Of a stretch of 352 nt of DNA, positions 1 to 352 are shown one piece after another. How positions within the stretch are numbered: the stretch's first letter is position 1; each line of letters begins with the position of its first letter. This DNA comes from Escherichia coli (GTDB lineage Bacteria > Pseudomonadota > Gammaproteobacteria > Enterobacterales > Enterobacteriaceae). A model generated the notes under the pieces. That model was not told where the DNA came from. It was given only the letters and a program-made list of their open reading frames with translations, and searched no databases. The stretch lies in assembly GCF_003334385.1 (NCBI RefSeq), contig NZ_QOWN01000196.1, one strand, 5' to 3'. A program made the translations under genes and the position numbers.

Positions 1-352
1 TTCGCCATTCCCGTATACAGAAAGGTATTCACCGTCTTCGTGTGAATGCCCATTTCACTGGCAAGGCGACAGGGTCTCGACTGGCGGTAGACGTAGCCAA
101 ACATCACCACCATCTCTGACATCGTCAGCGGACGGGCAACGCTGTTATACGTCCATACACCATTGCGTATGGCATCACTTATCTGCTCACCATCACGGAG
201 TGATTCCGCACCCAGTTGCAGAAAATGCCGTCCCTGGAACATGCAGCGCATCAGTCTGCCCAGCAACGTATCACAGATTATCAGCCAGGATTCGTCAAAG
301 TCCGGGATATAACGGCGGTTCTCCGGCAGGAAAAACTCCCTCGCCAGTATCA
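1..352 (-). CDS. Internal fragment of a protein-coding gene (hypothetical protein, possibly a DNA-binding regulator); 5' end lies beyond position 352 and 3' end beyond position 1
   Basis: Seen in sequence: the reverse-complement frame whose codons pair with + positions 350..3 is open for all 116 codons with no stop. The translation has a balanced, globular-like composition with a mixed hydrophobic and charged pattern. Leu is encoded mostly by CTG (8 of 12), as in enterobacterial genes. The other two minus-strand frames have stops near their starts. The antisense + frame is also open but encodes a Ser/Pro/His-rich low-complexity peptide. Function is not established; no database search was possible. 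Confidence 0.72.
9..131 (-). other. Putative helix-turn-helix-like DNA-binding segment within the CDS (residues 74-114 of the fragment: PLTMSEMVVMFGYVYRQSRPCRLASEMGIHTKTVNTFLYTG)
   Basis: Inference from residue pattern only: a hydrophobic helix-like stretch (SEMVVMFGYVY), a short basic turn (RQSRPCR), then LASEMGIHTKTVNTFLYTG with a hydrophobic-x-x-acidic-hydrophobic-Gly-hydrophobic ... T-x-T-V-x-x-x-L spacing. This resembles the second and third helices of sigma-70 region 4, LuxR-type, Mor/C-type or CaiF-type HTH motifs. Not verified by any profile search. Confidence 0.3.

Follow-up and report, generated by a model that had tools for sequence, protein, structure and literature searches.

A prophage gene behind Eib adhesin genes of Escherichia coli encodes an atypical LuxR-type regulator homologous to TosE

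The DNA considered here is a stretch of 352 nt from Escherichia coli (contig NZ_QOWN01000196.1 of assembly GCF_003334385.1; the window, below), which lies wholly inside a minus-strand gene catalogued as ORF-156 in the Eib-encoding prophages of this species. The assignment is new as an annotation, but the product, an atypical LuxR-type regulator and a full-length homologue of TosE, is of a known kind. We are highly confident that it belongs to the TosE family of regulators and that it binds DNA. As a whole, the reading that we favor, with somewhat better than even confidence, is that ORF-156 is a transcription factor coupled to the neighboring adhesin, acting independently of phosphorylation, and probably dampening motility. 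Evidence for the gene, for the fold of its product and for its kinship to TosE is given first, followed by its genomic setting and its possible function.

RESULTS

The gene and its coding strand

Minus frame 3 is free of stop codons across all 352 nt and holds 116 full codons (ILAREFF...YTGMA). The window is 100% identical to positions 739-1090 of locus L001, Escherichia phage PhiR5_1, within the annotated coding sequence (CDS) 690-1163 (-), and several E. coli strains carry the identical gene in chromosomal prophages; its product in strain 2015C-3121 is WP_032217753.1. GenBank records of the P-Eib prophages of strain ECOR-9 list the gene as ORF-156A/C/D/E, directly after eibA/C/D/E. In addition, database entry P0011, a 116-residue 'hypothetical protein, partial', is identical to the window translation and comes from a contig of exactly 352 nt. 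A sequence-only reading of the window had placed it in the interior of one minus-strand gene, and both the open frame and the identity to annotated CDSs bear this out. That reading also took the gene to be longer than the window; this is true of the full CDS (474 bp, 157 codons, 157-residue product), but only 73 nt on the 5' side and 49 nt on the 3' side lie outside. The window thus covers nucleotides 74-425 of the gene, with codons 26-141 complete and codons 25 and 142 partial, and the flanks contain no frameshift or stop, so the gene is not a pseudogene. Up to six copies of the gene occur per genome, which fits the view that the window is probably the whole of a short, repeat-collapsed contig of a draft assembly.

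An open frame of this size is by itself weak evidence for a gene, as dinucleotide shuffling of the window left at least one of six frames fully open in 10% of cases. We therefore rely on conservation and on the ratio of nonsynonymous to synonymous substitution rates (dN/dS), calculated by the Nei-Gojobori method for the window part of ten diverged alleles. In the minus frame, dN/dS was 0.06-0.34 for every pair. Because of this conservation and these ratios, the minus-strand gene is real and under purifying selection, and positions 1..352 (-) are assigned to the interior of the ORF-156 CDS by the open frame, the identity to annotated CDSs, the translation and dN/dS.

The sequence-only reading described only the minus-strand frame. 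The coding frame is indeed the minus one, but plus frame 2 is also open and had been overlooked: it spans 2..352 (+) with 117 codons, is rich in serine, proline and histidine, and is unusual given the sense codons, being open in only 0.9% of codon-order shuffles. However, of the 39 pairs for which dN/dS of this frame could be computed, 37 gave 1.2-5.9 and two gave 0.68 and 1.03, homologues carry stop codons in it, including alleles 92% identical, and its earliest start codon would yield 69 amino acids at most. The substitution ratios and the stops rule it out as a gene; it is a non-coding antisense shadow of ORF-156, a chance property of this allele. That the plus frame is nevertheless a real gene, or that the locus drifts without function, has a negligible probability in view of these results, of the low dN/dS in the minus frame, and of the confident predicted fold of its product.

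Predicted fold and family assignment

ORF-156 has no match in Pfam, NCBIfam, the anti-phage defence models of PADLOC or, by phmmer, PDB. In Pfam, neither the fragment, the full protein nor any of 24 family members gave a hit at threshold, and the best signal among the members was Sigma70_r4 with an E-value of 0.015 in one of them. The databases agree with the sequence-only reading in so far as the protein is called 'hypothetical' and lacks family models, and transposases, integrases and replication proteins, which that reading had considered without a match, are excluded. It is not unmatched, however, since it is already catalogued as ORF-156, is a full-length homologue of TosE, and falls in the NarL/FixJ-LuxR group by fold and profile. 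PHROG 6585, a family of function not known, is matched at E 7e-97, and UniProt labels some family members 'LuxR family transcriptional regulator'.

The AlphaFold2 model, built with the family alignment, has a mean predicted local distance difference test (pLDDT) score of 90.8 and a predicted template modeling (pTM) score of 0.86. Its N-terminal half is an α/β domain with strands at residues 2-6, 25-27, 46-51 and 67-72 and main helices at 10-19, 53-62 and 79-88, and its C-terminal half is a four-helix bundle (102-113, 118-125, 129-142 and 150-154). In a Foldseek search of PDB with this model, the top 43 matches were all full-length NarL/FixJ response regulators, with E-values from 6.6e-4 and probabilities up to 0.99; DesR, RcsB, FixJ, EvgA, VraR, LiaR, VpsT and DosR are among the matches.

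Profile comparisons point the same way. Two profiles were used, A1 of close homologues, with TosE not included, and A2, which is broader and contains diverged members. A1 reached E 0.13 at best against PDB. Owing to the diverged members, A2 reached E 6e-4 with GerE of Bacillus subtilis (1fse), then 0.016 with VraR, followed by EvgA, in register on the C-terminal helices. When A2 was aligned by hhalign with an alignment of EvgA, RcsB and NarL, 146 columns were collinear (probability 88%, E 3e-6), without gaps over residues 1-56. Distant family members also give weak NCBIfam matches to the helix-turn-helix (HTH) regions of BglJ, NarL, EvgA and EcpR. Taken together, model and profiles show a predicted NarL/FixJ-like two-domain fold, in which a shortened pseudo-receiver is followed by a LuxR/GerE-type HTH.

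The receiver-like domain comprises residues ~1-92, of which 26-92 are encoded in the window at 150..352 (-), including strands 46-51 and 67-72 and helices 53-62 and 79-88. According to alignment and model, T7-R8 stand in the place of the Mg-binding acidic pair (D7-D8 of EvgA), one beta-alpha unit is absent, and there is no conserved Thr/Ser or Lys. D52 aligns with the phospho-acceptor Asp52 of EvgA and is at least 90% conserved in the family (A1); its codon (GAT), at the end of strand 3, was located at 270..272 (-) from A1 conservation, the hhalign register and the sequence. Because the acidic pair, one beta-alpha unit and the conserved Lys are lacking, the pseudo-receiver probably works independently of phosphorylation, as a dimerisation or partner-binding module.

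A linker of residues 93-98 (132..149 (-)), defined by the secondary structure of the model, leads to the LuxR/GerE-type HTH domain. Residues 99-141 of this domain, which extends to residue ~154, lie in the window at 3..131 (-) with helices 102-113, 118-125 and 129-142, and the assignment draws on the family alignment, on profile A2 against PDB, on the model and on the weak NCBIfam matches of distant members. Conservation within the family is highest in the HTH (LTMSEMVVMFGY...LA.EMG...KTVN.FLY.G..KNG). Here K130-T131-V132, which are nearly invariant, begin the predicted recognition helix and match the 'KTV' of GerE, VraR and EvgA; the three codons lie at 30..38 (-), as given by the A1 and A2 alignments, HMMER alignments to GerE and VraR, and the sequence. 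From these features we infer that ORF-156 binds DNA through its HTH.

Full-length homology to TosE

The closest relative with a published role is TosE of uropathogenic E. coli (WP_001024300.1, 160 amino acids), to which ORF-156 is 34% identical over 156 residues with two gaps (BLASTP, E 2e-33). A search of 1.84 billion proteins with profile A1 recovers TosE at E 2e-32. Moreover, in a Foldseek search of AFDB50, the model matched the CFT073 protein A0A0H2V4I0 with a template modeling (TM) score of 0.93; from its length and its 33% identity, this protein is presumed to be TosE. The sequence-only reading would have regarded a full-length match to a characterized family as making the gene ordinary. 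Such a match exists, but TosE is itself only lightly characterized.

The tos genes were identified by their order. The distant family member P0050 (160 amino acids) is encoded after a large repeat-protein gene and before the gene of a 169-residue protein with a firm Pfam GerE match. The locus in strain ABU 83972 runs from a PapB/FocB-family regulator through a TolC-family protein, a type 1 secretion ATPase and an HlyD-family adaptor to a beta-strand-repeat protein, a 160-residue HTH regulator and a 169-residue HTH protein. Because this order equals that published for the tos operon, tosRCBDAEF, P0050 is TosE and its 169-residue neighbor is TosF. RefSeq names both proteins, encoded at L063 16696-17709, only as 'helix-turn-helix' proteins. 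TosF has a firm GerE match in Pfam and TosE has no firm match, with a weak one to Sigma70_r4_2 only; the TosE family is without a dedicated Pfam or NCBIfam model. ORF-156 has no significant similarity to TosF, and hhalign of A2 against this neighbor gave a probability of 59%, confined to the HTH. No TosF homologue was found in at least 50 ORF-156 loci, and tblastn detects TosF only in the tos loci L004 and L063.

An adhesin-linked cassette of lambdoid prophages

Intact ORF-156 genes were found in at least 20 phage records, 43 complete E. coli genomes and 35 IMG/VR loci. At 90% identity the family falls into 44 clusters, every one of them from E. coli and labelled 'hypothetical', and it has 36 representatives among the 1.84 billion proteins; outside E. 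coli it was met in one Salmonella entry and one contig of ~41% GC. In lambdoid prophages the gene belongs to the terminal accessory region, where the order is J, lom, tail fibre/assembly genes, a YadA-like/Eib trimeric autotransporter adhesin gene, ORF-156, ORF-60, and a convergent dinI-like gene near the prophage end.

Linkage with the adhesin was surveyed by tblastn in 50 loci from IMG/VR together with loci of phages, plasmids and chromosomes, where clade A denotes the loci that share 68-100% protein identity with the query. An Eib/YadA-type gene ends ~90 nt before the ORF-156 start in all 26 clade-A loci having upstream sequence (26/26). This linkage is kept although the passenger domains of the adhesins differ greatly. 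The adhesin-regulator pair is also carried by an IncFIA plasmid, in a copy 69% identical in DNA. ORF-156 is a prophage cargo ('moron') gene in a small cassette of adhesin, regulator and, usually, a small membrane protein. The sequence-only reading had left open whether the gene belongs to a larger novel system; it does not, and is instead part of this small adhesin-regulator cargo cassette of lambdoid prophages.

The plasmid, conjugative NZ_CP023358.1 (L010 4943-6272), carries a gene with a YadA C-terminal domain and then a 160-residue homologue of 67% identity; the pair adjoins a very large YadA-like gene and an OmpA-family gene, and is without ORF-60. In Eib-type loci, an ORF-60 homologue usually lies ~50 nt downstream of ORF-156. 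ORF-60 (L001 515-643 (-), annotated 512-685) encodes a predicted membrane protein of ~43 amino acids with the strongly conserved core RYT[AT]GAMCFMLFVWLGGVV; it matches PHROG 9340, of function not known, and has no PADLOC or NCBIfam match. Most Eib-type loci have it, whereas the plasmid copy and clade B, described below, are without it. In P-EibA (L003 1341-5348 (-)), eibA, ORF-156A and ORF-60A are followed by eaaA, a large autotransporter gene, and the regulator thus lies between two genes for surface or secreted proteins. No sensor kinase gene occurs within 8-10 kb of ORF-156 in L001, L002 and L003.

A conserved hairpin between eib and ORF-156

Within the gap of ~90 nt between eib and ORF-156 lies a conserved hairpin that is rich in GC and has a run of 5-8 T behind it. 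Predicted stabilities range from -15.7 to -23.1 kcal/mol, with z-scores of -3.5 to -4.7, and the hairpin is retained while the stem sequences vary among loci. Hairpin and T-run, located between the eib stop and the ORF-156 start at L001 1202-1225 (-) and L003 6131-6159, resemble an intrinsic terminator. GenBank record AF151091 already annotates a stem_loop at this site. About 30 nt past the T-run comes AGGAAGG, a good ribosome-binding site, and then ATG. A consensus scan predicted no sigma-70-like promoter in the 90-nt gap.

Because the gap has no predicted promoter and the start lies ~30 nt after the T-run behind a good ribosome-binding site, ORF-156 is probably expressed by read-through. The protein would be made at a low level from the adhesin promoter, through partial read-through of the eib terminator, and its dose would be tied to transcription of the adhesin. 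Searches for other elements were negative: there is no Rfam match at E up to 1 over L001 1-2600, and no direct or inverted repeats were found in the window.

Divergent, decayed and distant members

Clade B, of the phage 2B8 type, has 67% identity and 180 amino acids, and lies directly after tail-fibre genes without eib and without ORF-60. The copies of phage 2B8 (L008 5001-5543 and 8214-8633) have a C-terminal extension, a different terminator upstream, and ~170 nt of unique upstream sequence, which is possibly a promoter of their own; they stand ~3 kb from the gene of the type III effector EspM2.

In about 150 Stx1/Stx2 (Shiga toxin) phages, 933W and VT2-Sakai among them, all that remains of ORF-156 is a decayed mosaic, annotated as hypothetical protein L0123 (L009 3932-4287 in phage 933W; also L048-L061) and matching PHROG 2014. 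Its 5' part encodes residues 25-77 in one frame and is clade-B-like (66% identity), an out-of-frame deletion removes ~residues 78-118 with the first HTH helices, and its 3' part encodes residues 119-157 in another frame with 97% identity to the window allele. This decay implies that ORF-156 is dispensable to the phage.

More distant members are found in other settings. P0033 (L065-L068 7001-7495) is a common chromosomal paralogue of 164 amino acids and 55% identity, seen in 391 index blocks of the contig collection. It lies on a chromosomal island next to hpa genes, with ~1.1 kb without a called gene upstream and with DcuA/DcuB fragments and a PerC-family gene downstream. P0049 (L005/L006 1252-3119), at 38% identity, is on a contig of ~41% GC and is preceded by an apparently split PueAB-like RTX (repeats-in-toxin) lipase/esterase gene, of which one piece has 391 residues and the other 198 with HemolysinCabind repeats. 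P0046 adjoins a type 1 secretion cluster.

DISCUSSION

According to the reading that we favor, ORF-156 would bind host promoters through its HTH and, by analogy with TosEF, would turn down flagellar motility (fliC/flhDC) during production of the adhesin, giving reciprocal control of sticking and swimming. In published work, suppression of motility is ascribed to TosE and TosF, both of the LuxR family, and TosEF appears in a list of fliC regulators. The motility target, which is drawn from this analogy, is put forward only tentatively, and we hold it with clearly less confidence than the identity of the protein. Over-expression of TosEF reportedly lowered fliC expression and deletion raised motility (a finding attributed to Engstrom et al. 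2014).

Several observations weigh against this reading. The query fails the Pfam GerE model (PF00196) and every NCBIfam model, and the LuxR assignment comes from profile, fold and homologue evidence with modest E-values. ORF-156 is not mentioned in the literature searched, its suggested function is by analogy, and no link of Eib loci to a LuxR/TosE-type regulator was found there. TosE was studied together with TosF, which Eib-type loci do not encode, so the analogy may not transfer, and reviews call the mechanism of TosEF unknown. The suggested read-through has a consensus scan as its single source. Moreover, ~150 Stx phages keep only the decayed remnant, and the link with adhesins is not family-wide: clade B and P0033 have no adjacent adhesin gene, P0033 being on a chromosomal island near a PerC-family gene, and P0049 follows a gene for a secreted lipase-like RTX protein.

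A different target is conceivable. ORF-156 may be a local regulator that binds the eib promoter and exerts positive or negative feedback on eib rather than on motility. Such a role would explain the regulation of Eib expression in static versus shaken cultures: eibG mRNA is strongly condition-regulated, and the paper that reported this names no regulator. The strict linkage of eib and ORF-156 would suit it too, as would the frequent control of E. coli adhesin genes by adjacent LuxR-type regulators, such as AutA/AutR with upaB; EcpR likewise controls the adjacent ecp adhesin genes. However, TosE is reported to affect motility whereas tos expression is attributed to TosR, clade-B copies occur without any eib gene, and a position downstream of the adhesin and behind a terminator would be typical of 'output' regulators and not of operon activators. 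We consider local control of eib rather unlikely on these grounds. An even less likely possibility, compatible with either motility or eib targets, is that ORF-156 heterodimerises with the host LuxR-type regulator RcsB and redirects it. RcsA, BglJ, GadE, MatA/EcpR and DctR are reported to act as auxiliary partners of RcsB. RcsB is among the best structural matches of our model (TM up to 0.46 over both domains), and no TosF-like partner is encoded near ORF-156. Furthermore, ORF-156 recalls GadE, DctR and EcpR in being small, in its degenerate receiver and in having no cognate kinase, and it shows weak collinear similarity to them. But this similarity is not significant (5.8-8.8 bits), and resemblance to the RcsB structure is common to all NarL-family proteins.

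The presence of an HTH protein on a phage also raises the thought of a regulator of the phage life cycle, acting on lysogeny, late genes or superinfection immunity and not on host physiology. This is very improbable. ORF-156 lies outside the immunity and late-regulatory regions, after the tail-fibre genes and beside lom, eib and dinI-like cargo; it has homologues on a plasmid and on non-phage chromosomal islands such as tos; and it is decayed in ~150 otherwise functional Stx phages. At the other extreme stands a bolder extension of the adhesin-coupled reading. ORF-156 and TosE would form a distinct, unmodelled, kinase-independent family of pseudo-receiver/LuxR proteins, part of a portable cassette of adhesin and lifestyle switch that moves on prophages, plasmids and islands. 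The prophage copy would turn a lysogen from the motile state to chains or biofilm, possibly via RcsB, and would be the missing Eib regulator behind the difference between static and shaken cultures. We think it rather doubtful that all of this holds.

The adhesin-coupled, TosE-family reading gives a functional hypothesis for a 'hypothetical' protein that Pfam and NCBIfam miss and that recurs in Eib-carrying prophages of both commensal and Shiga-toxin-producing E. coli. If expression of the adhesin is indeed coupled to motility or other host programmes, it would be a simple case of prophage cargo rewiring host behavior, and ORF-156 would be a candidate for the missing regulator of the chains and biofilms that depend on Eib. 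In addition, a profile of the TosE family would let annotation pipelines name genes of the ORF-156 type.

Comparison with known systems

Two proposed kinships were rejected. Against profile A2, the APEC O1 (avian pathogenic E. coli) proteins HyxR and HyxA score 1.5 and -1.2 bits, which dismisses kinship with AutA/AutR of extraintestinal pathogenic E. coli, where Aut is presumed to equal Hyx from the locus layout. PsrA/PsrB of enterohaemorrhagic E. coli (EHEC), tried as LuxR-like relatives, are AraC-like according to a review, whereas ORF-156 has a LuxR-type fold.

With the NarL/FixJ proteins EvgA, RcsB, NarL, DesR and VraR, ORF-156 shares the succession of a receiver-like domain and a four-helix LuxR/GerE HTH, and the phospho-acceptor Asp is kept. 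Unlike them, it is ~50 residues shorter, has T7-R8 in place of the acidic pair and an incomplete receiver active site, lies near no kinase gene, and fails the NCBIfam and Pfam models of the NarL/FixJ family. In general design it resembles the atypical orphan LuxR-type regulators GadE, DctR/YhiF, EcpR/MatA, BglJ and RcsA of E. coli, which are small proteins (~175-210 amino acids) with a degenerate N-terminal domain and a LuxR HTH and require no kinase; GadE and DctR also have the N-terminal 'hhhhT+D/N' motif. Alignments of profile A2 with GadE, DctR and EcpR are collinear but not significant, and hhalign gave the same result for GadE and DctR. We regard the five as examples of the same design and claim no specific kinship.

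A parallel in logic is offered by PapX of the pap unit and MrpJ of the Proteus mrp unit, regulators at the 3' end of adhesin units that lower flagellar expression. These belong to different HTH families and are not known to be homologues of ORF-156; the likeness is one of proposed working only.

TosE remains the nearest system, with differences that have to be kept in mind. The tosE gene lies on a pathogenicity island between tosA, which encodes an RTX adhesin with type 1 export, and its partner gene tosF. ORF-156, by contrast, is carried by a lambdoid prophage or a plasmid; it comes after the gene of a type 5c adhesin, a trimeric autotransporter, and precedes that of the ~43-residue membrane protein. 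The two proteins have diverged by 66% in sequence, and the same targets are not assured. Nevertheless, they are homologous over their full length and have the same size and predicted fold (TM 0.93). Both have T-x-N in place of the canonical acidic pair, an Asp after strand 3 and a KTV-type recognition helix, and each gene directly follows one for a surface adhesin, on DNA that was acquired horizontally.

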